Below, piece by piece: positions 9,057 through 56,399 of a stretch of DNA of 64,000 nucleotides. The notes below the pieces were generated by a model. The model worked only from the letters and a program-made list of their open reading frames with translations. It made no database searches and had not been told where the DNA came from. Every line of letters begins with the position of its first letter. The stretch's first letter is position 1. Source of the DNA: an uncultured Candidatus Saccharibacteria bacterium (GTDB taxonomy: Bacteria; Patescibacteriota; Saccharimonadia; Saccharimonadales; UBA4665); contig CAZCMS010000001.1 in NCBI GenBank assembly GCA_964499935.1, forward strand, positions 674,452 through 738,451, given 5' to 3'. The position numbers and the translations under genes were made by a program.

Positions 9057-9058
9057 AA

Positions 9059-9979
9059 ATGAAGTTTAAAAGCAATGCACCCAACCGCAAGTCCTATCGT
9101 AAAGTAACGAGCATTTTGATTTTGATGGTCCTGGTCGGATTTGGAGTATGGTTTTTTACTATACGCAGCAACAATACCTCAGCAGATAGCCAAAGCTCAT
9201 CAGCTAAATCAGACGTAACGACGCAAGAGGAGAAAAAGAAAGTACCTAAAACAGTTGTCGATACGGCTCTTGAGACAAAAATAAAAGATTGGGTCGCCAC
9301 TCGACCAGCCTCGTACTCTATAGAACTTACAGAACTTGAAAGAAGCGACAAGACCTTAGACTTGCGCACGGCCAGCTACAACGCGGACAAATCCATGGTA
9401 CCTGCTAGCACCTATAAAGTCCTACTCGCATATGCAGCACTTCACGAAATAGAGCAGGGCACGTATACACTTCAATCCCAAACGCGATCTGGGCAAACAA
9501 TAGAGACATGCCTTAACTTAATGATCGTAAAGTCAGATAACGATTGTGGCAGAGCGATAGGATTTTTATTAGGCTGGAAACACGTAAACGAGCTGCTCAA
9601 ACAGAAAGGACTTACTAGTACCGACTTCGATAACTACACCACAGGAAGCGATGAGCCTGTAGGAGAAAAATACACGACCGCTCATGATACGCAGATTATT
9701 TTAACTTCTCTATACTCAGGTAAATTATTGAATACCGTACACACAGACTTGCTACTAGGGCTTATGAAGAAGCAGATCTGGAAAGAGCGAATTGTTACTG
9801 GCATACCAGAAGGAGTCGTAGTTGCGAGTAAGCCGGGCTGGTTACCTGGAGTTCAAACCGATATAGCAATTGTATATGGCGCTCACAGCACTTATGCGCT
9901 CAGTATCCACTCTACAGAAAGCAGAGCAGCACCACTCGCTGAGTTATCTAAAATAATATACGACTACCTAAATAGCTAA
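9059..9979 (+). CDS. Class A beta-lactamase-fold serine hydrolase
   Basis: SxxK (STYK), SDN (KSDND) and KTG-like (KPG) motifs in the correct order, plus an N-terminal TM anchor. Confidence 0.7.
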   Translation: MKFKSNAPNRKSYRKVTSILILMVLVGFGVWFFTIRSNNTSADSQSSSAKSDVTTQEEKKKVPKTVVDTALETKIKDWVATRPASYSIELTELERSDKTLDLRTASYNADKSMVPASTYKVLLAYAALHEIEQGTYTLQSQTRSGQTIETCLNLMIVKSDNDCGRAIGFLLGWKHVNELLKQKGLTSTDFDNYTTGSDEPVGEKYTTAHDTQIILTSLYSGKLLNTVHTDLLLGLMKKQIWKERIVTGIPEGVVVASKPGWLPGVQTDIAIVYGAHSTYALSIHSTESRAAPLAELSKIIYDYLNS

Positions 9980-10062: not shown

Positions 10063-10137
10063 TGGGACGTGGCCAAGTGGTAAGGCACCTGGTTTTGGTC
10101 CAGGCATTCGGGGGTTCGAATCCCTCCGTCCCAGCCA
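10063..10137 (+). tRNA. tRNA-Gln (anticodon UUG), CCA encoded
   Basis: Hand-folded cloverleaf. Acceptor TGGGACG/CGTCCCA, anticodon stem CCTGG/CCAGG with loop TTTTGGT, T arm GGGGG-TTCGAAT-CCCTC, then discriminator G and CCA. Confidence 0.85.
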
Positions 10138-10541: not shown

Positions 10542-10569
10542 GGGGGTTCGAATCTCTCATACCCAGCCA
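10542..10569 (+). repeat. Duplicated 3' fragment of a tRNA-Gln-like gene (att-type scar)
   Basis: GGGGGTTCGAATCTCTCATACCCAGCCA matches the tRNA 3' end GGGGGTTCGAATCCCTCCGTCCCAGCCA (10111-10137) with a few substitutions. No 5' half is present. Confidence 0.65.
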
Positions 10570-11522: not shown

Positions 11523-11596
11523 CTTAAGGTTGTACTCGGGATTAAAAATATAAGGTAGATTTTATAAAGAAAGATGAGGATCTTACTAAGCTTCTC

Positions 11597-11690
11597 GACC
11601 GACAGATGCTCAGTGCAGAGAGGTGGCAATGAAAGATCTTCATCAGCGCTTTCATGTGTCACGATTATTGGCACGATTTTGGCACGATTA
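11597..11690 (+). repeat. Dispersed repeat copy 1 (possible tyrosine-recombinase 3' remnant)
   Basis: GACCGACA..GAGAGGTGGCAATGAAAGATCTTCATCAGCGCTTTCATGTGTCACGATTATTGGCACGATTTTGGCACGATT recurs at 16228-16439. Confidence 0.6.
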
Positions 11691-11839: not shown

Positions 11840-12853
11840 ATGACAGGAGCGCCTAAAAAGCCTTTGAATTTATTTATTGATACTAATGTTTTATTAGGAT
11901 TTTACCGTTTCACTGAGGATGACCTCGATAGACTTAGCCAGCTAGAGGATCTAATCGTAAAAACAAAAGATATAAGTCTTTTTGTCACGGAGCAGCAGAT
12001 TGATGAATTCCATAGAAATCGTGACGGTGTCATAGCTCAAGCGTTAAAGGAAGTAAGGTCTGAGATTGTAATCCCCAAGTTGTTTTCTGGACACCCTAAA
12101 TACCGTGAGATAACGAATGCATCCAGGGAGTTACGGAACAATATAGCGATGCTTAAGAGCGACACGCTTGAAGGGGCTCTACGGCAAGACTTGAAAGCAG
12201 ATAAAATTATCATGAGATTACTCTCATCTGCAATAAAAACCACACCAGCGTTTATAAAGGCAGCTAAGATCCGAATGGATATAGGTAATCCGCCCGGTAA
12301 GAATGGATCACTTGGGGATGCAATAAATTGGGAAATATTACTAGCGAATATTCCTTCGAGTGAAGATATACATATAATCTCCGTCGATAGTGATTATCGT
12401 TCACCGTTGGGTGATTATAATCTTAATACATTTTTGGAAAATGAATGGATTGATAAAAAGGGTGCAAAAGCGTACCTTTACGGCTCATTAAATGGCTTCT
12501 TTAGTCAACACTTTGCGGACATAAAATTAATTGATGAATATATCAAGGATAGTCTAATTGCTCAACTGGGTGAATCAAGTAATTTTGATCAGGCTAGGTC
12601 AATTATTAGAAAACTGCAAAGAATTGGTGGTTTATCTGAAGATCAAGTAAAGCGTCTTATGGTAGCCTCGACTACTAACGATCAAGTTTATGGAGCACAT
12701 AAGTATAGCCCGACTATTATCGGAGATAGGCTCTGGGGTATGATTAAACCTTATTGGAGTAGTCTTAGCGACATTGAGCAAGAGATATGGATTGATCATT
12801 TCCCTGATGAGCAGATGCGTGAGCGAGAAGAGAATCTTGAGCCTCCATTTTAA
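11840..12853 (+). CDS. PIN-like domain protein (DUF4935-like)
   Basis: 337 aa. N-terminus LFIDTNVLLGFY is the first acidic PIN motif. Later D/E-rich conserved positions (ISVDSDY) also fit. Confidence 0.5.
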   Translation: MTGAPKKPLNLFIDTNVLLGFYRFTEDDLDRLSQLEDLIVKTKDISLFVTEQQIDEFHRNRDGVIAQALKEVRSEIVIPKLFSGHPKYREITNASRELRNNIAMLKSDTLEGALRQDLKADKIIMRLLSSAIKTTPAFIKAAKIRMDIGNPPGKNGSLGDAINWEILLANIPSSEDIHIISVDSDYRSPLGDYNLNTFLENEWIDKKGAKAYLYGSLNGFFSQHFADIKLIDEYIKDSLIAQLGESSNFDQARSIIRKLQRIGGLSEDQVKRLMVASTTNDQVYGAHKYSPTIIGDRLWGMIKPYWSSLSDIEQEIWIDHFPDEQMREREENLEPPF

Positions 12854-13542: not shown

Positions 13543-13573
13543 TATATCTGCGTATACGGAATCTAGCTTTATT

Positions 13574-13604
13574 ACGGCTATTACTTCCTCTATCGTTGTA
13601 AGCC
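13574..13604 (+). repeat. Cassette-junction repeat, partial copy A
   Basis: ACGGCTATTACTTCCTCTATCGTTGTAAGCC aligns to copies at 14276 and 15251. Confidence 0.6.
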
Positions 13605-14257: not shown

Positions 14258-14275
14258 GTAGCCTCCTGCTTGGCT

Positions 14276-14335
14276 GCGGTTATAACTTCCTTTATCATTG
14301 CGAGCTAAAGTTAGAACCAAAATTACAGAGATGAG
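14276..14335 (+). repeat. Cassette-junction repeat, copy B
   Basis: GCGGTTATAACTTCCTTTATCATTGCGAGCTAAAGTTAGAACCAAAATTACAGAGATGAG is highly similar to 15251-15310. Confidence 0.7.
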
Positions 14336-14428
14336 AGTCTATATCTTCATTATGGGGTATGATTAATTCATGACGAATGCAGTTGATAATAACAGTTGGG
14401 GCTTATGGCAGCCTAAAGAACTCGCAAG

Positions 14429-15217: not shown

Positions 15218-15250
15218 TTCGGCCACAAAGCTGCTAAATCTCGTTTTATC

Positions 15251-15310
15251 GCAGCCATAACTTCCTCTATCGTTGTGAGCTAAAGTTAGGACTAAAATTA
15301 CAGAGACGAG
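15251..15310 (+). repeat. Cassette-junction repeat, copy C
   Basis: GCAGCCATAACTTCCTCTATCGTTGTGAGCTAAAGTTAGGACTAAAATTACAGAGACGAG. Confidence 0.7.
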
Positions 15311-15381
15311 GATCTTTGTTTTTGTTTTTAAGGGGGTTAGAATAGAAACTACTATAACTCAACTCGTTGTATAATAAGCGT

Positions 15382-15987: not shown

Positions 15988-16227
15988 AGCAGTAGTACTA
16001 AATATTGCACCAAATCCAAAGAGTGGCGAAATTATTCGTATCATTCATGTAGGTTAATCGTATCATAGTGATACGATTATGGTTTTAACAGTCACAAAGC
16101 TTCGGAGCGCTAACTAAGGGCAGCGATTATACTAAAAATATTGTCAATTTACTGCTTACCGACTCTAACGTCAAACAGAGACGAAAGTTACAGGCAAGGA
16201 TGGCTCAGGATATTTGCTAAGTTCCTT

Positions 16228-16439
16228 GACCGACAAACGCTTGATACAGAGAGGTGGCAGTGAAAGATATCACTACTCTTAGTATCATCTGGTAGCGCAT
16301 GCTACAAGTCAAAATATTAAAGTCGAGAGTCTCTCGATCGTTCGAGTACAAATTATAGAGATCGTTTGATACATAACACCAGCGATCTTCATCATCGCTT
16401 TCACGTGTCACGATTGTTGGCACGATTTTGGCACGATTT
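16228..16439 (+). repeat. Dispersed repeat copy 2, interrupted by a 118-bp insert (16269-16386)
   Basis: Same left (GACCGACAAACGCTTGATACAGAGAGGTGGCAGTGAAAGAT) and right (CTTCATCATCGCTTTCACGTGTCACGATTGTTGGCACGATTTTGGCACGATT) halves as copy 1, separated by extra sequence. Confidence 0.6.
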
Positions 16440-17490: not shown

Positions 17491-20106
17491 TCACCTGAGC
17501 GAACTGAGCTCGGACAACTTCTCATCTTTCTTGTTGCTCAGGTGATTCTTTTTCGGTTTTTGCGCTGCACGTTTTTTCTCAACAAGCACTAGGTCTTGCT
17601 CCACGGGCGTAGTGATTCTGACTTGCGTTTGCTCTTGTAGCGTTTTAGCATACAGCAAACGAGAAGATTCTATAGCACGCTGACTGGTGTCCCTGTCGCC
17701 ATCGTCATCAACGACCACAGTCATACCTGACATTGACTCCTGTGAGTGTACTGCCGCTATGCGAATATAGTATGCGTAGGCTGGCAGGTTTGCTATCTCG
17801 CCTTGCTCAATGAAAGGACTAAAGAGTGGCAGTACGTATCTTTCATCGGCAGGGCTACCTGACCTAAAGCAAATGACCGTACCAACATTTGCCAGAATAA
17901 TATCGACAAGGCGCTGCTGGTCTTGCTGACTGGTAGACTGCTCGGCCATGGTGAGAAATAGTTTGTATTTTCGTGCTTCACTCAGCATCTGCACAAAACT
18001 CATGGTGGCAAAGTTCTGGAACTCATCAACGTAAAGATAGAATGGTACACGGTCATCCTGTCCAATCCGTGCTCGTCTCAGTGCTGCGGTCTGGAGTTTT
18101 GCCAGTATGGTCGTGCCGAATAGTGTTGAGGTGTCCTCACCGAGTAAACCTTTTGAAAAATTACAGATTAATATCTTCCGACTGGCAAGAATATCTTCGA
18201 AGTCTATCGTCGATTTAGGTTGCTCCAGTACCCGCTTTGCAGATCCAGAAAACAAGAAACGGCCAATTTTAGCAGTGATACCCGCTGCCATCTTGACTCG
18301 CTGGAATTCACCAGCCTTACCAAGTTCATTATCCCAAAAGTCCTTCAGGTGCTTATCTTCCAGATCCTTAACAACCTTACGTCGGAACTTCGTGTCATTG
18401 AGCAGCTCAAAGATAGTGAATAACGTCGACCCTTCAAGTGTGAGCGCAGTCTGTATCGCGTTACGCAGTACATACTCTATACGGTGACCGCCTGAGTCAT
18501 CTTCGGAAAATATCTTACGTAGCACAGAGATAGTCGCCTCGGTTACAAGATCCTTTTCGCGGAGCAGGTCATCGCCCTCAATACCATCAGGAAGCTCAAG
18601 TAGATTAACACCGATGGGATGCATCAAGTCGTCTGGATTCATATAGATTACATCTGGGATACGAGATTCAGGAATATAGCGCAGTAATCGCTCGGCAAGA
18701 TCACCGTGAGGGTCAAGCACCGCTACGCCGTTACCATTCTGAATATCCTGCAATATGCTATAGAACAGCATGGTTGTCTTACCGTTACCCGTACCACCAA
18801 TAACATAGACATGTCGTTCACGCTCAGCCTCAGTCAGCCCTATTGGTGTAACCACTCCGTGATGATGACTCTCTCCCAGTAGCACCGCGAGTTGCTGGCC
18901 AGATTTCAGCGATACAGGTGCTGGAAGCGTACGACTCAGTGAGCTCGCTACATTGTCTGTTTTGCTCATACGCCGAGAGGGTACGTGATACAACGCGGCC
19001 AACTCTGCAACAGACAGTACCGAAGATCTCTTTTGGAAGAGCGATGGCAAGCGACTATAGCTCAGTGTATGGTTGAGCCGATGAATCACGGGTAGTCGCT
19101 TCTTAGCCTTCAGTTCCTGGTATGGCGGCACGCTCAGCCCATCGAGGCTAGATTGGATAGCTTGTCGATGTTCTTTGGAATGGGGGCTAGTAATAAGCAA
19201 ACGAACATCTGTCCGAAACAACGGTCGACTCACTTTTTGGTGCATGGTCTGCATCAGTTCTAGTTCAAAAGCACTGAGTGTTCGAGCTGGTCGATCACGT
19301 AAGGAGGCCGGCAACTGCTGCCGAAGTTGTTTTTGTTTACTATCGTAATAATTTTTATGGCCATACGTCGTGCCCATATAGACTTCAGACGTCAGACTCG
19401 TCATGCCATTAAGGCTACTCGCAAAGAACCGAGAAACATGCCCTATGAGTGGCATCTGCCAACTACTTATTTCACTGAGGATGTTTTCGTTACCTAAGAT
19501 TTTATGTGTCAAGGTGTTCGCTTCGCGCAAACGCACCGGTCGAGTAACTAACTGTAAGGTAATCGATTCGTCGTCCTCAAGTTTAGTCATAGCACCCATA
19601 ACATAACCCAGGGGATCATGACCTTCAAATAATGAGGTCAATGTAAGTGGCATGACGTAGTGTCCAGACTGCTTAAACACCGTAGTATCGCTATGCTGCT
19701 GAGGTTGTTCGACCACGGTGCGGACTTTCGCATCTGGTACATAGCTTGTCAGCATTTTGTGGAGTACTTTTACGTACTTTGCTTCGCAGGCGATACGGTA
19801 GCGAATGCCCTCTGCTTTAGTTGAGGCTATCTCAAAACTCACGTGCGGTTCACGTCCGATCAGTCGCTCACGCAAGGTGCGAGACGAACGCAACCCATGA
19901 AAAACAGTGAAGAGCTGTTCGGTTGCCTCAGGTGTCTTTTCAATCGAGGCTGGTGGTGTCATTTCAAGCCAGACTAATTCTCGATTCAGTAAATACCGCC
20001 AATGGAGCACCCAAAGGATCATACGCATAAGTAGTACGGCGACAATGAGAGCAACCACAATGCCAACTACTATTGGCCAGTAATGAGTAATGGCGCTGGT
20101 GTCCAT
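17491..20106 (-). CDS. Type IV secretion coupling protein (TraG/TraD/VirD4-like ATPase)
   Basis: 871 aa with N-terminal TM helices, Walker A GGTGNGKTT and Walker B-like FYLYVDEFQNF. Confidence 0.8.
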   Translation of the reverse strand: MDTSAITHYWPIVVGIVVALIVAVLLMRMILWVLHWRYLLNRELVWLEMTPPASIEKTPEATEQLFTVFHGLRSSRTLRERLIGREPHVSFEIASTKAEGIRYRIACEAKYVKVLHKMLTSYVPDAKVRTVVEQPQQHSDTTVFKQSGHYVMPLTLTSLFEGHDPLGYVMGAMTKLEDDESITLQLVTRPVRLREANTLTHKILGNENILSEISSWQMPLIGHVSRFFASSLNGMTSLTSEVYMGTTYGHKNYYDSKQKQLRQQLPASLRDRPARTLSAFELELMQTMHQKVSRPLFRTDVRLLITSPHSKEHRQAIQSSLDGLSVPPYQELKAKKRLPVIHRLNHTLSYSRLPSLFQKRSSVLSVAELAALYHVPSRRMSKTDNVASSLSRTLPAPVSLKSGQQLAVLLGESHHHGVVTPIGLTEAERERHVYVIGGTGNGKTTMLFYSILQDIQNGNGVAVLDPHGDLAERLLRYIPESRIPDVIYMNPDDLMHPIGVNLLELPDGIEGDDLLREKDLVTEATISVLRKIFSEDDSGGHRIEYVLRNAIQTALTLEGSTLFTIFELLNDTKFRRKVVKDLEDKHLKDFWDNELGKAGEFQRVKMAAGITAKIGRFLFSGSAKRVLEQPKSTIDFEDILASRKILICNFSKGLLGEDTSTLFGTTILAKLQTAALRRARIGQDDRVPFYLYVDEFQNFATMSFVQMLSEARKYKLFLTMAEQSTSQQDQQRLVDIILANVGTVICFRSGSPADERYVLPLFSPFIEQGEIANLPAYAYYIRIAAVHSQESMSGMTVVVDDDGDRDTSQRAIESSRLLYAKTLQEQTQVRITTPVEQDLVLVEKKRAAQKPKKNHLSNKKDEKLSELSSLR

Positions 20107-20657
20107 AGTGGTGCTCCTATTTTACTGTGGATGAAATTGTAGTATGCAGCGGAATCTTTGCTGAAGGTGCGAGTGCTCACGATATTGAGACCTTTGACGT
20201 TCATTTCAGATATTGTCCATGCACCCGTGACAGCATCTACATCAAAGACGTAGGCAACATGCCCAAACTCACCACGATCACTTTGAAAGACTGCGCCGAC
20301 TCGTGGAGTGTGGTTCACCTCATATCCATCAGCTCTCGCCCGATCATCCCACGTATTCGCATTACCCCAAGTCGCTGGAATAGGACTACCCGCCCAGAGA
20401 CGCATCGCAAACGACCAGTACGTACAGTTACCCCAAGCGTACGTATTACCTGGTACTTCTGGTCCCATATAAAAACCTTGCGTGGCTGCTGCTTCGGCAT
20501 TTGGAGTGGCAGCCAGAAACGATAGCGCTTCCTCGCCCAGTGCTAACACCGACATAAAGGGCAGGCTTACAATCACCACCAGACTTACGACAACTGCTGC
20601 GATGTACTTACGTGTACCACCAGAGTTCATTAAGGTGACGACGAGACCTGTATTCAC
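20070..20657 (-). CDS. CHAP-domain peptidoglycan hydrolase
   Basis: 195 aa with an N-terminal TM/signal, catalytic Cys context GNCTYWS and His context GHVAYV. GTG start overlaps the VirB4 stop (GTGA). Confidence 0.75.
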   Translation of the reverse strand: MNTGLVVTLMNSGGTRKYIAAVVVSLVVIVSLPFMSVLALGEEALSFLAATPNAEAAATQGFYMGPEVPGNTYAWGNCTYWSFAMRLWAGSPIPATWGNANTWDDRARADGYEVNHTPRVGAVFQSDRGEFGHVAYVFDVDAVTGAWTISEMNVKGLNIVSTRTFSKDSAAYYNFIHSKIGAPLWTPAPLLITGQ

Positions 20658-22387
20658 GAATAGAGCTCCGCAGGATTGGTAGTAATGAGCGGATGTTCTT
20701 TCGGTGAGGCCACCACTTGCACTGCAACGTGATGCTGATCGGCAATAATCAGGGCATCACCTCGATCACAAGTAAGCAGGAACTGTTTCTCGTATTCACT
20801 CAGATTAAATTCGCTAACAACGTTTTTAATCGTGGTCGTATCTTGACGCATGAGAATACGAAGTGCACTTTGCGATGCAATGGCTCGTCCATAATCAGAT
20901 CTTAGAAAGTCATTGGCTTGCTGAGATATGATCGACACACCGAGGTAGTACTTGCGAGCACGACGCACGAGGCCTGACACAAATCGTGCAGACTCTTCAT
21001 GCTCAAGCAACATCCAACCCTCATCAATAATGAGGAGGCGCTTTTCGGGATTAGCTTTGACTTGGTTTTGTGTGAAATTCGAGATGATCAACATCATGAT
21101 TTGACGCAAGCTTTCGGGCAAGTCTTTAATATCGAAGATAACAAGACGGTTATCGAGTTGAATATTGGTATGCGCGTTAAAGACACTTGAAAGACTACCG
21201 GAGATATATTTCTCCAAGCGTTCACAGAGTTTGATCTGTCCAAGGCTGTGAAGTTCGGCATAGAAATCTTCAAGCAATGGCATCTGGTCTTTGTGTTTTT
21301 TATAGACTTTGAGGATGGCCTTATCTACCGCAGCTTTCTCGCGGGAACTAAGGCCTTCCGCCATCAACCCAATCACTTCAGTTAAGTCTTGAGCGTGTTC
21401 AGATAGGTCGTCGCCTTTATGAAAGGTGGTCGCAAGATCAAAGGGGTTAATCTTCTCGCTGCTTTTGGCTGACAATTTAATGTACGTGCCGTTGACCGAC
21501 TCAGCGAGCCGTTTATATTCACGCTCGGGATCAATCACAATTACTTTTGTGCCTTGCATAAGCTGACGGAGTATCTCAACCTTGGTTGTGTAGCTTTTAC
21601 CTGAGCCACTCTGGGCAAACACAATTGAATTGGCGTTATGGAGACTAAACCGATCAAGGATAACAAGACTATTGTTAGATTTGTTGACGCCATACAAGAT
21701 ACCAGACTCTTGCACGAGCTCACTACTCATGAACGGAAAGGTCAGTGCAGCCGAGCTACTATCCAAATTTCGTTTCTGAGCTAACTGATCTTCTCCTCGT
21801 GGCAAAATTGACTGCAAAGCCTCAAGCTGTTGGTAGCGAGCGATCTTGCTATAAAACAAGCGTGCCGATAAAGTCGCTTCAAGTAGTTTCGTAATCTTGT
21901 TGAGTTCCTCTAGGCTATCTGCGCGAAGACAGACGTAGATACTCATCTGAAACAGTTTTTCTTGGCCACGTTGGATTTTATCTCGCAGTTCAATTGCTGA
22001 TTCAAGTGGGTCGGTAATTTCGCTGCCGACAATCTTACCAGCCCGCATCATGGCGCGCTTGGTTGATTCAAGCTCAGTAATCTTACGATGCAACTTTGGC
22101 AGTGCAAGGAGCGCGTTCACTTCGTGTACATGATAGGAAATATCGCAGTCGTGGTTGAAGTTGATAATACTGTCCATCCAGCCAGAATTTGCTACGAACG
22201 GATAACCGGCGATGAACAGGGTACGGATATAAACGCCGTCAAGGCAGAGATAGTCTGCCTGCTCCTCCAGACCAGCATAGCTCAGTACATCAACGGCATC
22301 TTGCTCACCAAAGGCCAGAACTCGTTCTTTGGCCTTCTGCTGTCGTTGCTCGCGCTTCTTTGCAACTTTTTGTATAACTTGCTGCAT
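20654..22387 (-). CDS. virB4: VirB4/TrbE-like T4SS ATPase
   Basis: Walker A AQSGSGKSY and Walker B LLIIDEGW. Start set at the internal ATG (MQQVIQK) behind GGGAGGA, directly after the upstream gene stop. Confidence 0.85.
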   Translation of the reverse strand: MQQVIQKVAKKREQRQQKAKERVLAFGEQDAVDVLSYAGLEEQADYLCLDGVYIRTLFIAGYPFVANSGWMDSIINFNHDCDISYHVHEVNALLALPKLHRKITELESTKRAMMRAGKIVGSEITDPLESAIELRDKIQRGQEKLFQMSIYVCLRADSLEELNKITKLLEATLSARLFYSKIARYQQLEALQSILPRGEDQLAQKRNLDSSSAALTFPFMSSELVQESGILYGVNKSNNSLVILDRFSLHNANSIVFAQSGSGKSYTTKVEILRQLMQGTKVIVIDPEREYKRLAESVNGTYIKLSAKSSEKINPFDLATTFHKGDDLSEHAQDLTEVIGLMAEGLSSREKAAVDKAILKVYKKHKDQMPLLEDFYAELHSLGQIKLCERLEKYISGSLSSVFNAHTNIQLDNRLVIFDIKDLPESLRQIMMLIISNFTQNQVKANPEKRLLIIDEGWMLLEHEESARFVSGLVRRARKYYLGVSIISQQANDFLRSDYGRAIASQSALRILMRQDTTTIKNVVSEFNLSEYEKQFLLTCDRGDALIIADQHHVAVQVVASPKEHPLITTNPAELYS

Positions 22388-22388
22388 A

Positions 22389-23048
22389 CTACAATCCTCC
22401 CTCAGCCTGTACGAGTGCAGTGTGCATAAGCTGCAGAGCTTGCTCAGTGAGTGGCTGTAGCTTAGCTTGCGATGGATTATAGAAACTATAGAACAGATCA
22501 AGAATTTCGAGACTCGATAGCTGGCGAGTATGCATGCCGACGCGGGTCATACCTTTACTGACAATGTCGAGCTTGAGCGATAGCTGTTCCTTCACCAGTT
22601 CAAAGTTTGCTTTGCTATTACCAACATAGGGCACAATAACGTAGAAATGACGGGTTAGTATCTTGTTATTCGTAATGAGGGAACGAATAAACTCATCGTA
22701 GTATTCGAGCTGCGAACGGTAGATAGCTTCCGGCTCATTGTCTTTGCGAAGCGCCACATCGGCCAGATATTTATCCATATCAATTTCACGGGTGCGAATC
22801 AGAATCTGTAAACTACTGCCAACCGAGTTCAAGAAGCTCTCATAGGTATCAATAATCGCGTCCTGTTCGTCTTCACTCCTGAGTTCAAAGTTGAGTGATG
22901 ATACCTGTAGTACCGCCCGGTACTGGTGACGGGGTAACATAAGGATACCGTCACGTACCCCTTGAATATCTACCTGGCTACGACTTGACGCTTTGGCTTT
23001 CGACTTCTGTAAAGCGAACATGGAGGCCTCCTTTCTTGGTTGTTTCAT
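22389..23048 (-). CDS. T4SS-associated hypothetical protein (resembles the N-terminal domain of Gram-positive VirB4 homologues)
   Basis: 219 aa in the T4SS operon. The pattern DIQGVRDGILML..YRAVLQVSSLNFELRSEDEQ recalls VirB4/TcpF-type N-termini. No ATPase motifs. Confidence 0.4.
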   Translation of the reverse strand: MKQPRKEASMFALQKSKAKASSRSQVDIQGVRDGILMLPRHQYRAVLQVSSLNFELRSEDEQDAIIDTYESFLNSVGSSLQILIRTREIDMDKYLADVALRKDNEPEAIYRSQLEYYDEFIRSLITNNKILTRHFYVIVPYVGNSKANFELVKEQLSLKLDIVSKGMTRVGMHTRQLSSLEILDLFYSFYNPSQAKLQPLTEQALQLMHTALVQAEGGL

Positions 23049-23499
23049 ATCTTACGCCAGCTTCGGGGTTGTTGAGCGCCGACAGGATTTTGCTTGATAC
23101 ATGAAGTGGCAATCGGTCAGGTACGGCTGCGACTACCTCTAGGCTTTCTTCCTTCAGTTCCGTACCTGTCTCGACCTCACGGTAATCTTGCCGCAACTGA
23201 GTGGTATTTTTGTTCCATATATAGAGCTGAGGTCTCAGGTTGTATCGGAGAATGATCAGGAGCCAACTGGCCAAAATCTTGCCACGAATACGAATCGTCA
23301 AGATCAGACAGATGACCGCTACTATCGTCATAAGAATATATTTGTAGATAGTGCCTGCCATCATGGGCGGAGGTAAAACGTACAATCCAACACTGACAAA
23401 GATCGGGACAACGAGCAGTACTATTTGCGAAAAGCCAAGGCTGCCAATGATCCGATCCTCAATAGTCGTCACTTGCGCGGGAACAACAGTTACTTTCAT
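22978..23499 (-). CDS. PrgI/VirB3-like small membrane protein
   Basis: 173 aa. N-terminus MKVTVVPAQVTTIEDRIIGSLGFSQIVLL followed by two TM helices, as in PrgI-family proteins. Confidence 0.5.
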   Translation of the reverse strand: MKVTVVPAQVTTIEDRIIGSLGFSQIVLLVVPIFVSVGLYVLPPPMMAGTIYKYILMTIVAVICLILTIRIRGKILASWLLIILRYNLRPQLYIWNKNTTQLRQDYREVETGTELKEESLEVVAAVPDRLPLHVSSKILSALNNPEAGVRYETTKKGGLHVRFTEVESQSVKS

Positions 23500-24989
23500 A
23501 TTTTCTCTCCTTTCTTAGTGGTATTTACTTTTGTTTTCATATCCTCGACAGCAGCACTGCGCGATGTGGGCTCCGATGCCTCGTACGTTGATCCTGTTTT
23601 TTGAGACACGCCTTTTGGCGTTGGCTTTGCGTTATAGGCCATCTGAGCAGTACCCCGTTTATTTTCAGCACTTTGCGACTGTCCTGTTCGTATCGCCTGA
23701 TTTTCAACACCTGGCTGTATCCACTTTTTCTTCGCCGTATCTGCCTTGGAGCTTACTGCTGTGGCTGCTGCTTTGCCACCACCAGCAATGTAACTGACAC
23801 CGTTCATAAACTGGCCACCAAGCTTGCGAGCATTGCGCGATCCAAGACTGACGTAGCTAAATTGCATCATGACACCCTGTGTACGAAGTAATGCCATGAC
23901 CGTGGCGAGCCCTACGATCATCGCCAAAAGCGTATCTGGCGCCTGATTACTATTCACGGCTGACATACCTGTAAACAATGAGGCTGCCAGTTGCAGGATC
24001 ACCACATGCACGAACAGGACGAATATTGTTGAGAGATACGTCTTCGCTGCTGTCTCCGAGAAATCTCGAAAGCCAGGCACGAGCCAGAGAAGCACCACCA
24101 GTGGCGATAGTACCGCACCAATAAACAATGTCACCAAACGACCGACGTAATAGACCAACAGTATGACCGTAAAGATCAGAAATGCCATCATCATGAGCAG
24201 GGCAGCAACTCCCTGACCTCCAGATTCTTTAACGACGCTCGTAAGTATTTGCCATACCGACGAACTACCTGACAGTTTACCGACGGCCTGGATAAGCACG
24301 TTGGACAGCTCAATAATCCCATCAATCAGGAACAGCGACGTGTTAATCAGCAGGAATATGAGCCCAACTCTCGGAAGAAGGTGCTTAAACTCTATCTCGT
24401 CAAATCCAAAGCTCGCAGCACTCATGACATGTAATCCGATCAGCGCCAGTATCACCACAAACAGCGCATTCGCAATCGCCACCATGCCAAGCCACAGATT
24501 AAACACACTTTGGTTGTCCGCCATCAGCGGCGTTGCTTTCGTAAAGAAGTCTAATGCTGCCAGAAATGGCGAGGCCACTGCTTGAATAATGTTATTTAAG
24601 AACCCAGTGACAGCCTTAATCAAAATGTCGACAAGTCCGTTGCTGACGCTATTTGGTGGTATTGCCTGTAAACTCGGCAAACTACTTTGCTGTGTCGCCG
24701 TGTTATGCCCATAGGCATTCACTAGAATCGACGTCAGTGTTACTGCTGCAAGGACTATCACCATGCCGATCAATGCACTTTTTAGCACATGCTTAGCATG
24801 CTCCATCTGTTCAGGCCTACCGGCACTGGTCATATACATATAGCCCGAGTTCACAATGAAGAACGTACAGACAATGCCAGCTAACGCCGCAAAGAGTCGA
24901 ACAGTCGGCGTTACCCAATCTCTTACAACACTAACGGCACTCGATGCATCAGCAAAGAAAGATAGGTGGATGAGAAGTATGTCACTCAT
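23496..24989 (-). CDS. VirB6/TrbL-like polytopic T4SS channel protein with N-terminal pilin-like segment
   Basis: 497 aa with about 8 TM helices and a Lys/Thr-rich C-terminal tail. N-terminal segment SGYMYMTSAGRPEQMEHAKHVL is similar to the upstream pilin-like gene. Confidence 0.55.
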   Translation of the reverse strand: MSDILLIHLSFFADASSAVSVVRDWVTPTVRLFAALAGIVCTFFIVNSGYMYMTSAGRPEQMEHAKHVLKSALIGMVIVLAAVTLTSILVNAYGHNTATQQSSLPSLQAIPPNSVSNGLVDILIKAVTGFLNNIIQAVASPFLAALDFFTKATPLMADNQSVFNLWLGMVAIANALFVVILALIGLHVMSAASFGFDEIEFKHLLPRVGLIFLLINTSLFLIDGIIELSNVLIQAVGKLSGSSSVWQILTSVVKESGGQGVAALLMMMAFLIFTVILLVYYVGRLVTLFIGAVLSPLVVLLWLVPGFRDFSETAAKTYLSTIFVLFVHVVILQLAASLFTGMSAVNSNQAPDTLLAMIVGLATVMALLRTQGVMMQFSYVSLGSRNARKLGGQFMNGVSYIAGGGKAAATAVSSKADTAKKKWIQPGVENQAIRTGQSQSAENKRGTAQMAYNAKPTPKGVSQKTGSTYEASEPTSRSAAVEDMKTKVNTTKKGEKI

Positions 24990-25009
24990 GGCCGAGGCCT
25001 ACCTATCTC

Positions 25010-25354
25010 TTAGCTGCCCCCAAAGGCATTAGTTGCCAGTGTTGCCACGATATTACTGATGACAAAAGCAGCAATCACGATAGCTAAGCCGATAGCCGAC
25101 CAAGTGAGGGTACGTTTTGCCTTATCTAGCTGCTCAGGATTACCCGAACTTGTGATGTAGGTAAATCCGCCGACCACAAAAAAACCGGTCGCAATGAGAC
25201 CGGCCAAACCTGCAAGCGCTTGAATCACGCCTCGGACAAAGTTTTGAACTTGTCCTATATCTCCCCCGGCAGCAAACGCCGGGGCACTCACCGCTAACGG
25301 CATCCCCAACGCCACAAATGCTGCGACAAAAAGTTGTTGTTTATGCTTCTGCAA
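25010..25354 (-). CDS. VirB2/TrbC-like pilin
   Basis: Signal-like N-terminus ending AFAA, then two hydrophobic helices around TYITSSGNPEQLDKAKRTL. TTG start chosen behind GGAGGA; the track ATG at 25432 lacks an RBS. Confidence 0.5.
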   Translation of the reverse strand: MQKHKQQLFVAAFVALGMPLAVSAPAFAAGGDIGQVQNFVRGVIQALAGLAGLIATGFFVVGGFTYITSSGNPEQLDKAKRTLTWSAIGLAIVIAAFVISNIVATLATNAFGGS

Positions 25355-25676
25355 CTTGTTTTCCTCCACTAAATAGTTGATACAAGGGAAATGTATCACA
25401 CTTGTAAAGCCATAAATACAGCTTAAGCGCAATCATAAAAACATAACAATTATTATCAACAGGTGCGAAAACATTGACTATTTTACAATATACTTTTTTG
25501 CATTTTTATCGAAAGATGTCTTAATTTAATAATTATTTAATAATCTAGCTCCAGTTGGTGCTATGGTTGCCACCCCTATATTTAGAATAAGCCCAGAGAA
25601 GATAAATGAGCCTGCAACCCTACTTCAACGTATCTTATAAACCATGTAACTTTGCCTGCATCAAGGACTGTCTAGG

Positions 25677-26666
25677 CTACTGTAATTCGGCTTTAAGTAT
25701 TCTTGCTAAAGCATTCATACTATTAAATTCATAGAATGCAAGGTATGCCAGCGCAAGTTTTCTGGCGTCAGTCTTACGAAGACTGACGCCTTTGCCAATA
25801 GAACTAATAAGGATAGCGTTTGCAAGCATCCGGCCAGTTCGCTTATTGCCGTCTTCAAAAGCCTGCAGGTATGGAACAAGAGTCAACGCTAGCTGTGCAC
25901 GAACAAAAGGGTTTTTTGTACGGCTGATAATAGAGAGTATTGTTTCCATATTTTCTCTCAACAGAAGGGGATTGGCGAGTGGCTCATAATTGCTTGCACT
26001 AATTCTAACGATCTTTTTTCGGATCCCGGCATCGATTCCGAGATTGCGACCAATAATCCTATGGAGCTCTTCAACGGAACTGAAAGCGATACGGTCTGTA
26101 AATAATTCATGGTTCTCAACAATGAATGCAATAGTATCTTTATGATTGAGTATCATCTGAGTCTCAAACTCAGTTCGATTTTTTGCCTTAATACCCTCAA
26201 CAAGAAGGAGTTGAGTATCGAGCAATGTGTAGGTGTTGCCTTCAAGCGCAGATGATTTCCATGAGAGCTCTATCGTCAGGTGTTCTAGTTCTTTTGCCGA
26301 CATTTTATTGCCTGTTGTTAGTTCGGTGACTTTGCTATAGTCACTGAAAAGATTATCAAGCTGCTGGCCTGATAATGAGTCCAGCCAAGTAATAAAGGCA
26401 TGACGGAATATACTTTGTGGACGATTCTCGTCTTCTAGAAGTTTATCGGCTATCATCGCGTGCATAACGGCTTCGTAGCTAGGACTATAGCTGGGACTAT
26501 TATTTGTGCCACTCTTACTAATAAGCCCAATGTCAGTAAGCCTCGCGAGTGCCCTCTGAATAGAGCGAATATCTACGTCTGGTAGATGCTTGCTGATTTC
26601 GGATGATGTCGTATCACCATTGAGTAAGTACAAGAGTACATACGAAGTTCTTTTGGTTATGTTCAT
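25677..26666 (-). CDS. Fic/Doc-family protein with N-terminal winged-helix domain, degenerate active site
   Basis: 329 aa with a wHTH N-terminus and inhibitory-type motif SSALEG. The active-site region QAFEDGNKRTGR is Doc-like (NKR) with Gln in place of the catalytic His. Confidence 0.7.
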   Translation of the reverse strand: MNITKRTSYVLLYLLNGDTTSSEISKHLPDVDIRSIQRALARLTDIGLISKSGTNNSPSYSPSYEAVMHAMIADKLLEDENRPQSIFRHAFITWLDSLSGQQLDNLFSDYSKVTELTTGNKMSAKELEHLTIELSWKSSALEGNTYTLLDTQLLLVEGIKAKNRTEFETQMILNHKDTIAFIVENHELFTDRIAFSSVEELHRIIGRNLGIDAGIRKKIVRISASNYEPLANPLLLRENMETILSIISRTKNPFVRAQLALTLVPYLQAFEDGNKRTGRMLANAILISSIGKGVSLRKTDARKLALAYLAFYEFNSMNALARILKAELQ

Positions 26667-30702: not shown

Positions 30703-30759
30703 TGCAGTTTCGTCGTTTACGACTCGTCAGTATAGCTTATATGTAATCTATAGACTGCT
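30703..30759 (-). ncRNA. Type III hammerhead ribozyme (copy 4, divergent helices)
   Basis: The minus strand reads GCAGU-C/UAUAG-12 nt-CUAUA/CUGACGA/GUCG-UAAA-CGAC/GAA/ACUGC. All core positions, G10.1-C11.1, A15.1-U16.1 and a GUC cleavage triplet are present. Confidence 0.8.
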
Positions 30760-30903
30760 AGGGAAGGGGTGTGATAGCCAAAAGGCTATTGATTCACACT
30801 CCCTCCCGGAGTTTTACTGGTTAACTCCACCAGAATCGATTTGCACGAATCGTGCCACCCTTCGATTAAAAGGTGTTACCTGAATTGACCGTAAACGATC
30901 AGA

Positions 30904-31146
30904 TCAGCCGTTCATCACCTTGGTGGTGACTTGAACAACCGAGTTGGGTTCGAGAACCTCATCCAGCTGGGCCTCACGACCGTTCACCTGGACCATCAGA
31001 CCTTGCTTGACCCTAACGTTCGCACAAGCGAGCGCATTAGCAACGGTCATGTCAGACGCATAGTCCAACTGATGGAGATCACCACCGAGCACAGCAACCT
31101 GCACCCAGCTCGGAGCTTCCTCGGCCACAACGATATCCGTAGACAT
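30904..31146 (-). CDS. Ubiquitin-like beta-grasp protein (ThiS/MoaD-like), C-terminal Gly
   Basis: 80 aa. VQVNGREAQLDEVLEPNSVVQV resembles ThiS/MoaD. Ends KVMNG-stop. GAGGAG RBS. Last gene of the E2-JAB-E1 operon. Confidence 0.65.
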   Translation of the reverse strand: MSTDIVVAEEAPSWVQVAVLGGDLHQLDYASDMTVANALACANVRVKQGLMVQVNGREAQLDEVLEPNSVVQVTTKVMNG

Positions 31147-31173: not shown

Positions 31174-31842
31174 TCAGCGACTGAACAATTGTGCTTCTCG
31201 CACATGTACATCGATGTACGACTTGAGCTCCATATCTCGCGCAAATCGTGTCAACTGAGCAATCATGTGCCCAGCCAATACTACCGGCGGATGGATCACG
31301 GTACGCGCTGCGCACGGCAAAGGCGCACCCTCTCCATCAGGAAAAAGCCAATCCTTCTCGTAGGTGTCCACCGCATCCATATCCAGAGGGTTCAGCGCAA
31401 GCAATGTCATTTGCTCGCCACCAATCCGACCGTCAAGGTACAAAGGAACATCCGGGTTGAACTTGACTGACCCCCAAATATCGCATCGAGCCTGCATACT
31501 GTCTACACCGCTGATGACAACACCGCTGAGCGGGGTTTCTGCTGTCACAAATTCCTGGTGTGGAACAATGCTGCACTCAGACTCTCTGTAAGACTCCAGC
31601 ATTTCTGCTGCAGCCTCCACCTTGGGCCTACCAACATCGGTGCGGGAATAGATCAACTGCGCTGGCACATTGTGCGGCTCCACATAGTCCAAGTCCCACA
31701 AATGCAGCTCGCCACGAAGGCCGAGCTTCACCAACGGGAGCACCACAGCGCTACCGATTCCGCCGACACCAATCACATGGACAGGCCAGGTGAACTTACT
31801 CGGGTCGAAGATATCCGTCTGACCAGAATAGTCAGCAATCAC
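31174..31842 (-). CDS. ThiF/MoeB-type E1-like adenylating enzyme
   Basis: Rossmann motif IGVGGIGS, plus DLDYVEPHN and GVDSMQAR motifs. GTG start 7 nt after the JAB stop and behind GAGGTGA; the longer track ORF overlaps the JAB gene. Confidence 0.8.
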   Translation of the reverse strand: MIADYSGQTDIFDPSKFTWPVHVIGVGGIGSAVVLPLVKLGLRGELHLWDLDYVEPHNVPAQLIYSRTDVGRPKVEAAAEMLESYRESECSIVPHQEFVTAETPLSGVVISGVDSMQARCDIWGSVKFNPDVPLYLDGRIGGEQMTLLALNPLDMDAVDTYEKDWLFPDGEGAPLPCAARTVIHPPVVLAGHMIAQLTRFARDMELKSYIDVHVREAQLFSR

Positions 31843-31849
31843 AATTACT

Positions 31850-32479
31850 TCACCTCTCGATCTGAAGATTCGTAGGGTCGTATGGTACCGCATCAGCTGA
31901 AGCGCGAGGCTCCAAAGGAACGGTACGAAGTCGCCCAAAAAAACCCATCCCCTGGCTACGCACCTTGAGACGAATCTCGTCGGCGGTGCTGTCAAGCAAG
32001 CCTTCGTCGAACACTGTCACAATCTCGGGTATCACATCAATCTCGACCCGAAAAGGCTCGAAAATGTCCAAGCGACAGCGAAACTCGCCACGCTTGTTGA
32101 CAACCAGACTGATCAGCCAATCTCCAGGCCAGCGCTCAATATTCGCCGTATCGGTAGGGGAGAAATAGGACTCCATATTGACATGACTATGCCACTGGAA
32201 CTTGATAGATCCAGGATTCCCCGTACCGCTCAGCACCATCTCGTGAATGAAATGGGTCAGTGCATCATGGTCCACCTCAGCGTGTCCGGGCGAAGCCACT
32301 TGGTCCAAAATGAACACATCCTTCACACGGATGATGTCATCACGCACCTCCACCAAGCCAAATCCGTTGATCTCGGTCGGGCAATTGATGACGTATGCCA
32401 TCATCTTCTGCCAATCCTGAAACGAAATCTGCACTCGGGGGATACGAATCACTGCGGGGCCTGCCAAATTGACCGACAT
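31850..32479 (-). CDS. JAB/MPN (JAMM) metallopeptidase
   Basis: 209 aa with upstream Glu (TEINGFG) and the full JAMM motif HSHVNMESYFSPTD (HxHx7SxxD). Confidence 0.85.
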   Translation of the reverse strand: MSVNLAGPAVIRIPRVQISFQDWQKMMAYVINCPTEINGFGLVEVRDDIIRVKDVFILDQVASPGHAEVDHDALTHFIHEMVLSGTGNPGSIKFQWHSHVNMESYFSPTDTANIERWPGDWLISLVVNKRGEFRCRLDIFEPFRVEIDVIPEIVTVFDEGLLDSTADEIRLKVRSQGMGFFGRLRTVPLEPRASADAVPYDPTNLQIER

Positions 32480-33925
32480 CTACTTCATCTCCTCTTTATA
32501 CACGTGGAATGCTTGCAAAACATCTTTCTGATGCTCGGGGTTAACCGAACATAGACATTCAACTATCAAAGCCATCGCCTCAACATACTGCGCCTTGGCA
32601 AGGTGTTCATTGACGACTCTCTCCCGATTACCAAAACAAAACGCTCCGGTAGAGAGTCGATATACCGGGTAGCCACCTCTCCAGCTGCTCTTCACACCTG
32701 ACCGTAGCTCTTTTGCCGTTACCGTCAAGGTGTCGGCGCCAAGATCTACCTGCCAATCACCCAGGTCGTACGCTACCCCACTGTATTCATTGATGGCTCG
32801 CACGATGAGACGGATGCGATTGTTCACAACCTGCACTGCCAAAACTCCAGGCAGAGACATGATGCGATCAAATTCACCTCCAATATTCATCTCGAACAGT
32901 TGCTCGTTGGTTTCTTCGATAGCTCGCTCCAGGATCTGCTGCTGACTCGTCAAGTCATTTATCTCACCTTGCTGGCTTTTAACTTGCTCAGCGAGTGATC
33001 GCAAGACCTCGCGACCCCGCTTTACTGCCAAAACAACTTGCTTATGAGCCTCGATTCGATTCTTTTGCGCACTTTCTTGTCGCATTTCTACGTATACTGC
33101 ACGAGCACTATTAGGCGAGCTGGCATACGTCCGACTCACAGCAGGCCGCACCTCCGACGTTGAGTCTCCTCCCCCAACCAGAACATCTACTGGATTATGT
33201 CCATAGAAGTCAGGGGGCACCCACTCATCAGGTGGCGTCCACTCATCCCTTGGCTGGTGTTGCACGTCTCTTGCGCCTGGCTCCATCCTGGCTTGAAGTG
33301 GAGGATCCCAGCGAAGCAATAGCCCGCTCACAATCATGCTCAACCACCAAAAGGGGCCAAACATAAGCGTGACAACAAAGGGCCACACGTATCGCCAGGG
33401 CAAATCTGCCAATCGATGCTGCTGCTGTTCGTCCCGAAGATCAACCATATAGGCTATCAACGTTACTAGGCTAAAGAGCAGCCACATAACCAACAGTCCT
33501 GGATCAAAATACACAGCCGTTATAAAAGGCTTGAGACTGCTTTTTGTAAGGCCTAGCTTTAGTGGCTCACCTGTCTTGGCGACTTGCTTCAGCTGCCTAA
33601 GTTCCTTGGAATCTGAATCGAAAGGCTCCTCCTTATTGAGCTTGGCACTCAAATCCTGAAGACTCAAGACTTGTGTTGCCATCTGCATGCGTTTGCCACG
33701 TGTTTCTTCACTGACATCTTTTACATGCTCTTTGTTAGAGAGCATGATTTGAGCCAGTTTTTGGTTATTTCCCACGTTGTGGTTGGTGACCAAAACAATA
33801 CCGCCAGCGATAGCGATAGCAATCACACTCAATACGAGCGCAGCAATAAACATCAACGCTATCGATTCTCCGATATTGCGATCGATGAAGGTACCAAATC
33901 GCAACGGTGTCTCACGACGCGTCAT
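32480..33925 (-). CDS. Membrane-anchored coiled-coil protein with putative E2 (UBC-like) C-terminal domain
   Basis: 481 aa with TM helices near residues 20-45, 145-165 and 180-205, a Pro/Trp-rich linker, and a heptad-like region. The C-terminus has a four-strand pattern, then YPVYRLSTGAFCFGN (resembling HPN-x-G-x-IC-L of E2s) and a helix. Its stop directly abuts the JAB start. Confidence 0.45.
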   Translation of the reverse strand: MTRRETPLRFGTFIDRNIGESIALMFIAALVLSVIAIAIAGGIVLVTNHNVGNNQKLAQIMLSNKEHVKDVSEETRGKRMQMATQVLSLQDLSAKLNKEEPFDSDSKELRQLKQVAKTGEPLKLGLTKSSLKPFITAVYFDPGLLVMWLLFSLVTLIAYMVDLRDEQQQHRLADLPWRYVWPFVVTLMFGPFWWLSMIVSGLLLRWDPPLQARMEPGARDVQHQPRDEWTPPDEWVPPDFYGHNPVDVLVGGGDSTSEVRPAVSRTYASSPNSARAVYVEMRQESAQKNRIEAHKQVVLAVKRGREVLRSLAEQVKSQQGEINDLTSQQQILERAIEETNEQLFEMNIGGEFDRIMSLPGVLAVQVVNNRIRLIVRAINEYSGVAYDLGDWQVDLGADTLTVTAKELRSGVKSSWRGGYPVYRLSTGAFCFGNRERVVNEHLAKAQYVEAMALIVECLCSVNPEHQKDVLQAFHVYKEEMK

Positions 33926-33944
33926 CAGAATTCTCCCTTGTATA

Positions 33945-33994
33945 GTTTACTTCCAGTTTCAAATCTCGCTAAAGGTCTAAAACTGGAAGTAAAC
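33945..33994. repeat. Perfect 15-bp inverted repeat (cassette A 5' hairpin)
   Basis: GTTTACTTCCAGTTT (33945-33959) and AAACTGGAAGTAAAC (33980-33994), about 20 nt upstream of the operon start codon. Confidence 0.8.
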
Positions 33995-34217
33995 CGCATA
34001 CACAATTCAGGTAAATTATTAAAATACAAAGACACAATATCAACCATAAAAGGTCAATCTTACTCCTTGAATCTTATATTTAAATATAAGCACAAAATAT
34101 ACATTTAGTCAATTAGGTCGTATGATGAAACTATTCACCAATAGACGCCTTGAAATAAAATATACATACATAGGTATTAACTTTGGATAAATTAAGATTT
34201 ATAGGATAATACAGTCA

Positions 34218-41354: not shown

Positions 41355-41414
41355 TTTTCGCTCTACAAATTAAATAGTTGTACTGATGAGTCCTCAGGAG
41401 GACGAAAGCGAAAG
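41355..41414 (+). ncRNA. Type III hammerhead ribozyme (copy 1)
   Basis: UUUUCGCU-C/UACAA-9 nt-UUGUA/CUGAUGA/GUCC-UCAGGA-GGAC/GAA/AGCGAAAG. An 8-bp helix III, 5-bp helix I and 4-bp helix II, with every invariant core base present. Confidence 0.85.
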
Positions 41415-56341: not shown

Positions 56342-56399
56342 TTTCGCTCTGCAAATAAAAGAGTTGTACTGATGAGTCCTAGAGAGGACGAAAGCGATA
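56342..56399 (+). ncRNA. Type III hammerhead ribozyme (copy 2)
   Basis: UCGCU-C/UGCAA-9 nt-UUGUA/CUGAUGA/GUCC-UAGAGA-GGAC/GAA/AGCGA. Helix I has a G-U where copy 1 has A-U. Confidence 0.8.

Follow-up and report, generated by a model that had tools for sequence, protein, structure and literature searches.

Hammerhead ribozymes are known by the hundreds to thousands in bacteria and phages (PMC3088659, PMC8782182). In bacteria they stand on the borders of genes or small gene groups in mobile DNA, and were proposed to cut long transcripts into unit-length messenger RNAs (mRNAs) (PMC3088659). The type III hammerheads reported by Perreault et al. in 2011 (PMC3088659; Rfam family RF00008, clan CL00010) are the closest described counterparts of the element analysed here, a 55-nt hammerhead on the minus strand of a 64,000-nt stretch of contig CAZCMS010000001.1 from an uncultured Candidatus Saccharibacteria bacterium (the whole stretch is referred to as the window). 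The two share the same core, the three-helix junction and an open helix III, and both border a short gene block in mobile bacterial DNA, in this case a four-gene cassette that ends with the gene for a ubiquitin-like (Ubl) protein. The focal element differs from the 2011 set in its host, which belongs to the Patescibacteria or candidate phyla radiation (CPR), in the strong hairpin without a U-tract that lies directly upstream, and in a score below the Rfam gathering threshold; furthermore, the genes flanked in the 2011 paper vary (PMC3088659), whereas the type described here has a fixed partner, the Ubl/E1/JAB cassette. A literature search returned no report of hammerheads in Saccharibacteria or CPR, and a search on hammerheads together with intrinsic terminators found nothing relevant. 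The explanation that we favour, with a probability of roughly 0.55, is that a cis-acting, self-cleaving hammerhead forms the last 3′ untranslated region (UTR) element of the cassette, where a hairpin–ribozyme module would define the mRNA 3′ end and insulate the cassette.

Read from the minus strand, the focal ribozyme (30704–30758) has the layout GCAGU-C-UAUAG-(AUUACAUAUAAG)-CUAUA-CUGACGA-GUCG-UAAA-CGAC-GAA-ACUGC. The sequence quoted in an earlier note on this DNA matched exactly on re-reading, and the span given there, 30703–30759, encloses the ribozyme itself plus one unpaired base at each end. Helix III (GCAGU at 30758–30754 with ACUGC at 30708–30704, 5 bp) is open, and helices I and II end in loops, as the type III topology demands: helix I (UAUAG at 30752–30748 with CUAUA at 30735–30731, 5 bp) places a U-A pair next to the core, and helix II (GUCG at 30723–30720 with CGAC at 30715–30712, 4 bp) is closed by the loop UAAA. 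The catalytic core CUGACGA (30730–30724) and the GAA core segment (30711–30709), both read directly in the sequence, supply every invariant hammerhead position, namely C3, U4, G5, A6, G8 and A9 (with C at N7), and G12, A13 and A14. The core-adjacent pairs 1.1–2.1, 10.1–11.1 (G10.1-C11.1) and 15.1–16.1 are likewise intact, the A15.1-U16.1 pair closing helix III. Hammerheads cleave after position H17. That position is held by C17 (30753), not G, in the canonical GUC triplet that the earlier note had recognized, and application of the consensus predicts a cut between C17 and U30752. Stem I can be read with a 12-nt loop, as had been proposed, although three further pairs (UUA/UAA) are possible past an A·G mismatch, leaving a CAUA loop; the A·G position is also found in the downstream ribozyme of a related locus, L006. 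Stem lengths are typical, and loop 2 (UAAA) resembles the NAAA of relatives. The minimum free energy (MFE) structure is the hammerhead fold, both for a 59-mer alone and within a 246-nt context. The fold energy of the 59-mer is unremarkable (z = −1.2), and the 246-nt context is strongly structured (z = −5.2) with the ribozyme fold retained.

A cmsearch score had been suggested in the earlier note as a check. With the whole window searched against all Rfam families in E-value mode, the focal site is the top non-tRNA match, to RF00008 (Hammerhead_3), at 44.4 bits (E = 1.9e-6); the score lies under the curated gathering score of 48.5, and in gathering mode the hammerhead is not listed. The lower score is accounted for by 9 inserted nt in loop 1, by a loop 2 that is shorter, and by mismatches in outer helix III. 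Related compact bacterial ribozymes reach only 24–46 bits in RF00008, and because every relative also scores below the threshold, the low value reflects the seeding of the model rather than a defect of the motif. Across the scans of the window and of loci L004–L017, the Rfam type III gathering score excludes the whole compact subclass, which standard annotation would miss. The core pattern CTGANGAG..CGAAA occurs five times in the window against 0.18 expected, and a strict type III structural descriptor written for this analysis gives four matches, exactly the four hammerhead sites, and none in 200 shuffles. A covariance model termed R1, built from six length-matched sequences, scores the focal ribozyme at 61.8 bits, a value that is partly circular because the focal copy is one of the six training sequences. 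A MAFFT alignment of 11 ribozymes misregistered helix II, and was replaced by the length-matched seed and Infernal alignment.

The ribozyme lies on the sense strand of the cassette, past its last gene, 144 nt from the end of the Ubl stop (30904), in agreement with the ∼145 nt estimated before. The cassette encodes, in order, a ∼480-aa protein, a JAB peptidase, a ThiF/E1 protein and the ∼80-aa Ubl, and the order is the same in related loci. Fourteen such loci were fetched through an alignment of the 481-aa protein family (A3), from metagenome-assembled genomes (MAGs) of Saccharibacteria, one Binatia MAG and soil metagenomes. A same-strand type III hammerhead was found just past Ubl, by the descriptor and then by R1, in L004, L006, L010, L012, L013, L016 and L017; with the window included, 8 of the 13 distinct cassettes carry one, 65–148 nt past the Ubl stop. 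By comparison, ∼165 kb around the cassettes, searched on both strands, holds a single hammerhead away from a cassette boundary (L011). The cassette proteins are only 30–47% identical across cassettes. From one locus to the next, unrelated genes lie past the ribozyme (SecA, GDSL lipase, P-type ATPases and, in the window, a convergent kinase-like gene), and those before the cassette are housekeeping genes that differ between genomes. The core is fully canonical in five of the eight post-Ubl ribozymes, L012 and L013 carry a U10.1·U11.1 variant, and L010 has two decayed copies. No other ribozyme class was detected in the ribozyme-less cassettes in Rfam at E-values up to 5, and no upstream partner ribozyme is present at 33926–34217 (minus strand) of the window, where the sole CUGAUGA overlaps the start codon and is followed by neither GAAA nor helices. 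As a separate observation, the variant in which U·U replaces G10.1-C11.1 (CUGAUGA-UUCC...GGAU-GAAA), in which the cleavage position is mostly A or U, is seen at 3097–3149 of L012 and 9131–9183 of L013 and recurs in the viral loci L072, L068, L093 and L070; it is present at many independent loci, and standard filters would reject it.

The helices covary. In an Infernal alignment of 15 sequences, pairing is kept in 92.5% of cells, and both sides have changed in 16 of the 17 pairs; none of 500 shuffles reaches the observed values. An independent set of viral ribozymes (n = 51) gives a similar result, with 15 of 17 pairs covarying and 92.5% of cells paired. As both alignments were fitted to the model structure, pairing is inflated somewhat; slid partners, however, are only 32–45% paired, which argues against an artefact. 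The earlier note had described the focal site as a fourth copy of the other hammerheads in the window, its helices replaced with compensating pairs. The helix sequences quoted there for copies 1–3 are correct and the core is indeed the same, but the focal ribozyme is not a copy of them: because it travels with the Ubl cassette, setting it against copies 1–3 compares separate lineages, and the actual covariation evidence is, on the alignments at hand, supplied by the orthologous cassette set. The conclusion drawn from that comparison, a fold that is selected rather than a chance match, nevertheless stands on the canonical core, the MFE fold and the covariation among the hammerheads of homologous cassettes. 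Judged from its sequence and its relatives, the focal element is a complete, canonical and selected type III hammerhead fold, and self-cleavage is predicted.

The three other hammerheads, at 41357–41412 (plus strand), 56343–56398 (plus strand) and 61170–61224 (minus strand), for which RF00008 gives 24.1 bits (41358–41411), 37.2 bits (56342–56399) and 30.8 bits (61171–61223), are ∼89% identical to one another and constitute a family of their own, characterized by a short hairpin, a U-rich tract, a GUUUGUCAU leader, the helix III sequence UCGCU and a 6-nt loop 2. The focal ribozyme shares only the catalytic core with these resident copies; membership in their family was rejected on the different leader, the different helices and the length of loop 2, which is 4 nt in the focal copy. 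Its helix II and loop 2 (GUCG-UAAA-CGAC) are identical to those of the downstream cassette ribozyme in L006, its nearest relative by that measure. On these comparisons, the focal ribozyme is part of the Ubl cassette, not of the repeat family in the window. With regard to the resident family itself, two of its members bracket the cyo operon in inverted orientation: the copy at 56 kb is found immediately 5′ of cyoA, and that at 61 kb, on the other strand, immediately beyond cyoE. The L011 hammerhead (12534–12586, minus strand) belongs to the subfamily of the 41-, 56- and 61-kb copies.

The second constant feature of the locus is the hairpin. The earlier note had placed the ribozyme next to a long GC-rich hairpin, and this 47-nt structure (30807–30761 on the minus strand; 18 pairs, ∼−27 kcal/mol) indeed ends 1–2 nt before it. 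Between the Ubl stop and the hairpin lies a structured spacer (30808–30903, minus strand) with three small hairpins; a conserved non-coding RNA in this spacer was considered and rejected, as sequence similarity does not reach past the Ubl coding end except among close relatives. A long hairpin follows Ubl in every cassette, with or without a ribozyme. We scored hairpin strength and distance jointly, because distance alone is misleading (60–65% of random positions have a hairpin within 5 nt). At all 10 cassette-associated ribozymes (eight after Ubl and two upstream of a cassette), a hairpin of −23 to −38 kcal/mol ends 0–4 nt upstream, as compared with 9.3% of random positions in the same loci, and the 60-nt MFE upstream of these ribozymes has a median of −29.5 against a background of −11.9. 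None of the 10 has a U-tract after the hairpin. At the focal site the hairpin is followed by UAGCAGUC, which has no U-tract and does not qualify as an intrinsic terminator. The ribozyme-less cassettes L008, L015 and, weakly, L007 have a hairpin with a U-tract, that is, a classical terminator.

Two loci, L004 and L006, have a second ribozyme upstream of the cassette, and in both a sigma-70-like promoter begins 11–14 nt past it. In L004 this is TTGACT-17-TATAAT (5793–5850) with 11 of 12 matches, and in L006 ATAACA-16-TATAAT (3225–3280) with 10 of 12; a score of at least 10/12 is reached in 0.9% of random 110-nt windows. Since strong promoters come just after them, these upstream ribozymes close the unit that comes before and lie outside the cassette 5′ UTR. 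In L004, direct repeats of a ∼190-nt module (small hairpins, long hairpin, hammerhead) stand on either side of the cassette (5610–5792 and 8915–9095); their ribozymes are identical, and their hairpin region is 83% identical and shows compensatory stem changes. A whole-module repeat was seen in L004 alone.

The same design is abundant in viruses. At least 120 viral contigs match the core and helix II pattern, and in 80 matching viral loci (L021–L100) R1 detected 51 type III ribozymes built to the same 53-nt design. Their upstream flanks are structured (median −17.0 against −9.3 kcal/mol, p ∼1e-14) and their downstream flanks unusually unstructured; promoters are not enriched downstream of the viral ribozymes (1 of 51). 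The Ubl cassette was not found in viral or phage contigs. In viral loci L035, L046, L068, L070, L072 and L093, three to five hammerheads of this design occur per contig, ∼1 kb apart.

The favoured explanation accommodates the position, strand and hairpin coupling of the ribozyme as follows. The polymerase would transcribe past the hairpin, which has no U-tract; the ribozyme would fold and cleave its own RNA 8 nt beyond the hairpin, after GUC (30753); and the upstream product would end in hairpin-UAGCAGUC with a 2′,3′-cyclic phosphate. A cassette mRNA end composed of the hairpin, 8 nt and the cyclic phosphate should be resistant to 3′ exonucleases, and the downstream RNA would be detached with a 5′-OH. 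In this manner, the hairpin–ribozyme module could take over the role of the terminator U-tract wherever the cassette lands. A broader proposal, which we put forward only tentatively, is that hairpin and hammerhead form a portable, polymerase-independent maker of mRNA 3′ ends in Saccharibacteria and in the phage pool with the same 53-nt design, replacing U-tracts, moving with cassettes and insulating these at any site of insertion.

Several observations weigh against this explanation. Five of the 13 cassettes have no ribozyme, and in L010 tandem hammerheads past Ubl have decayed (9112–9163 and 9197–9239; one copy with CCGAUGA and GAAG, the other without the CUGAUGA core), which implies that at least one lineage can do without the element. 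Exchange of ribozyme for U-tract is incomplete: a clear U-tract is present in only two or three of the ribozyme-less cassettes, and the hairpins of L005/L009, L014 and L011 are accompanied by neither. In the window, the next gene is convergent, and so there is no co-directional gene to insulate. A simple terminator and promoter scan gave no match at the focal site. In the viral contigs, the hairpin enrichment is only moderate at a looser cut-off (55% against 30%). Finally, focal stem I has no UGU-type loop, which is conserved in most relatives, making tertiary stabilization and the cleavage rate at physiological Mg2+ uncertain.

Of the competing explanations, a chance resemblance to the hammerhead consensus in AT-rich intergenic DNA would fit the sub-threshold Rfam score and the modest z-score of the 59-mer, yet is effectively refuted by the Rfam E-value, the 200 shuffles without a descriptor match, the same-position ribozymes in seven other cassette lineages and the strong covariation, and its probability is negligible. 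An unlikely but more serious rival is that the ribozyme is an active or recently active passenger from a phage or mobile pool, with no role in the cassette, and kept only for lack of time to decay. Such a passenger would account for the many viral contigs with the same 53-nt design, some with three to five copies each, for the placement of the cassette in a ∼24-kb island that is absent from a close relative (see below), and for the decay in L010 and the five ribozyme-less cassettes. It is harder to reconcile with a constant position and strand past Ubl across cassettes of 30–47% protein identity, with intact cores in five of eight and compensatory helix changes, with the cassette's not being found in viral contigs, and with the constant coupling to a strong hairpin.

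A part in regulation is improbable. Here, the ribozyme would belong to the control of a presumed defence cassette, setting the dose of a potentially toxic conjugation system through mRNA fate or being itself modulated by some factor on phage infection, and indeed Ubl/E1/JAB operons of related composition are anti-phage and tightly regulated (PMC11601596) and the 3′ UTR is unusually structured (z = −5.2). The spacer sequence is however not conserved between lineages and holds no aptamer-like conserved element; the ribozyme follows the last gene, so that cutting there leaves every coding region joined to its ribosome-binding site; in L004 and L006, unrelated genes upstream are closed by this same module; and the defence role of the cassette is itself unproven, with no PADLOC system match. 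Slightly less probable again is that the modules are boundaries of a mobile cassette, either repeats for recombination or exchange, or ends that release a unit-length RNA, which, given two identical ribozymes, could be re-ligated into a circle as in retrozymes and viroid-like RNAs. The directly repeated L004 module with its identical ribozymes, the ribozyme on each side in L006, and the occurrence of the cassette at different chromosomal sites in different genomes are all suggestive of boundaries. The window, on the other hand, has a single ribozyme and none upstream of the cassette; the two L006 ribozymes differ in helix III, and their ends are thus unable to re-form one ribozyme; the upstream ribozymes precede the cassette promoter and so lie outside the cassette transcript; and genes for a reverse transcriptase, integrase or transposase are missing from the cassette. 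In addition, Perreault et al. sought circular or spliced products of bacterial hammerhead arrays and found none (PMC3088659). Overall, the favoured explanation, in which the module acts in cis at the 3′ end of the cassette transcript, is the one to which we assign the greatest probability.

The cassette itself lies on the minus strand. Its first gene (32480–33925) encodes a 481-aa protein with no known domain and no match in Pfam, NCBIfam or PADLOC; its family is a very rare one, represented by 14 clusters in a set of 5.8 billion proteins. Its C-terminal domain has an invariant Cys in the motif YPxYRLGxGxFCFG (family alignment A3), and an AlphaFold model of this domain shows a UBC-like alpha-4beta-loop-3alpha topology. 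An E2 fold was not borne out by dedicated searches: Foldseek gave no match at E < 0.5 and only weak RWD matches, a profile search against the Protein Data Bank (PDB) gave nothing significant, nor did Pfam for all 14 family members at E-values up to 10, and hhalign against UBE2D2 returned a probability of 0.2%. The second gene (31850–32479) encodes a JAB/JAMM-like peptidase of 209 aa (22.3 bits and E = 1.3e-4 for Pfam Prok-JAB, slightly below its cut-off, 25). The third (31174–31842) encodes a ThiF/E1-like adenylyltransferase (Pfam ThiF, E = 3.5e-18) of 222–239 aa according to gene finders, although the longest open reading frame extends to 31995; the protein has partial PADLOC matches to E1-E2 and BilD. 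The last gene (30904–31146) encodes the 80-aa Ubl, ending VMNG*, which has no Pfam match itself and has homologues in all cassettes. The Ubl label is reasonable since this small protein ends NG* in every homologue and the L004 copy matches SAMP2/ThiS. An exact-protein look-up of Ubl retrieved three metagenome contigs in which the intergenic region is 100% identical, and which are therefore uninformative on conservation.

Around the cassette, the window encodes a cysteinyl-tRNA synthetase (CysS; 1155–2579) whose best named relatives, at 65–68% identity, come only from Candidatus Saccharimonadales. A type IV secretion system, LytR-CpsA-Psr and a cyo-type oxidase are encoded as well, a gene content that fits a Saccharibacteria (TM7) genome. 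In a close relative, GCA_040960395.1 (L020), CysS is 89% identical; this genome is syntenic with the window to ∼10 kb and then passes nearly straight to cardiolipin synthase (34218 of the window), such that ∼24 kb (∼10000–34200) are absent from it. At the start of this stretch lies a tRNA gene (10063–10134), whose 3′ end recurs as a 28-nt repeat at 10542–10569; besides the Ubl cassette, the stretch carries genes for PIN, Fic, TrpR-like and kinase-like proteins and for type IV secretion (17491–25432). Given the stretch missing from the close relative and the tRNA-linked start and repeat, the ribozyme lies within a mobile island, which by its gene content looks like an integrative conjugative island. 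The island also has intergenic direct repeats, 80–95% identical and 0.7–4.7 kb apart (11583–11689 with 16214–16438; 13560–13603, 14262–14347 and 15237–15322), and at 25764–25790 (plus strand) a perfect 11-bp hairpin with a sub-threshold match to weev_FSE, a viral frameshift element (33.4 bits, E = 0.17), which is most likely a plain intergenic stem-loop. The cassette closest to that of the window, in L014, has no hammerhead, and its large protein is 47% identical; directly upstream of it lies a tRNA gene (5681–5763), a hint that the cassette may insert at tRNA-linked hot spots.

In composition the cassette resembles Bil-type operons, and by the profile matches obtained it appears to fall outside every catalogued family. 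With the Bil, Bub (6E) and Cap2/Cap3 type II CBASS operons (PMC11601596) it has in common a separate Ubl with C-terminal Gly, a ThiF-type E1, a JAB protein and residence in a mobile island. It is distinguished from these by a short E1 (∼225 aa) and by its remaining gene, for the ∼480-aa family in which an E2 fold is unconfirmed; neither PADLOC, NCBIfam nor Pfam matched the cassette to BilA/B/C, BubE (DUF6527) or Cap2. The cassette is uncharacterized and deserves study in its own right. For the hammerhead, it offers a tractable locus at which to address the role of bacterial hammerheads, with a fixed four-gene partner and a constant place beside a protective hairpin. Natural comparison cases exist in the cassettes with hairpin and U-tract, with decayed ribozymes and with the module on both sides, and the idea that a ribozyme stands in for the U-tract is directly testable in a heterologous host. 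If the module were indeed a portable maker of 3′ ends, bacterial hammerheads would gain a defined and general biological role.

The bracketing of a unit by hammerhead-bearing direct repeats in L004 is reminiscent of retrozymes and viroid-like circular RNAs (PMC4918200). The ribozyme of the window, in contrast, is single, and what the repeats enclose in L004 is an operon of 3.3 kb that codes for proteins, has a promoter of its own past the first ribozyme and lacks reverse transcription machinery. The intrinsic terminator offers a further parallel: both structures lie past the last gene, in L004 and L006 just before the next promoter, and both would leave a strong GC-rich hairpin at the mRNA 3′ end. 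Unlike a terminator, the module has no U-tract, is predicted to self-cleave 8 nt past the hairpin leaving a 2′,3′-cyclic phosphate, and need not stop the polymerase. Synthetic insulators of the RiboJ type also combine a hammerhead with a hairpin, and cut the transcript at a fixed point so that expression is independent of neighbouring sequence. RiboJ is placed in the 5′ UTR and carries its hairpin after the ribozyme, whereas the module described here lies at the 3′ end with the hairpin before it. The favoured explanation agrees with the 2011 proposal of unit-length mRNAs, and extends it by naming a structural partner and a position equivalent to that of a terminator. Both the class of ribozyme and the general setting are already known; what is new, as far as the comparisons go, is the extension of hammerheads to Saccharibacteria/CPR genomes, the fixed and rare Ubl cassette partner, the hairpin coupling at a terminator-equivalent site and the blind spot at the Rfam threshold.

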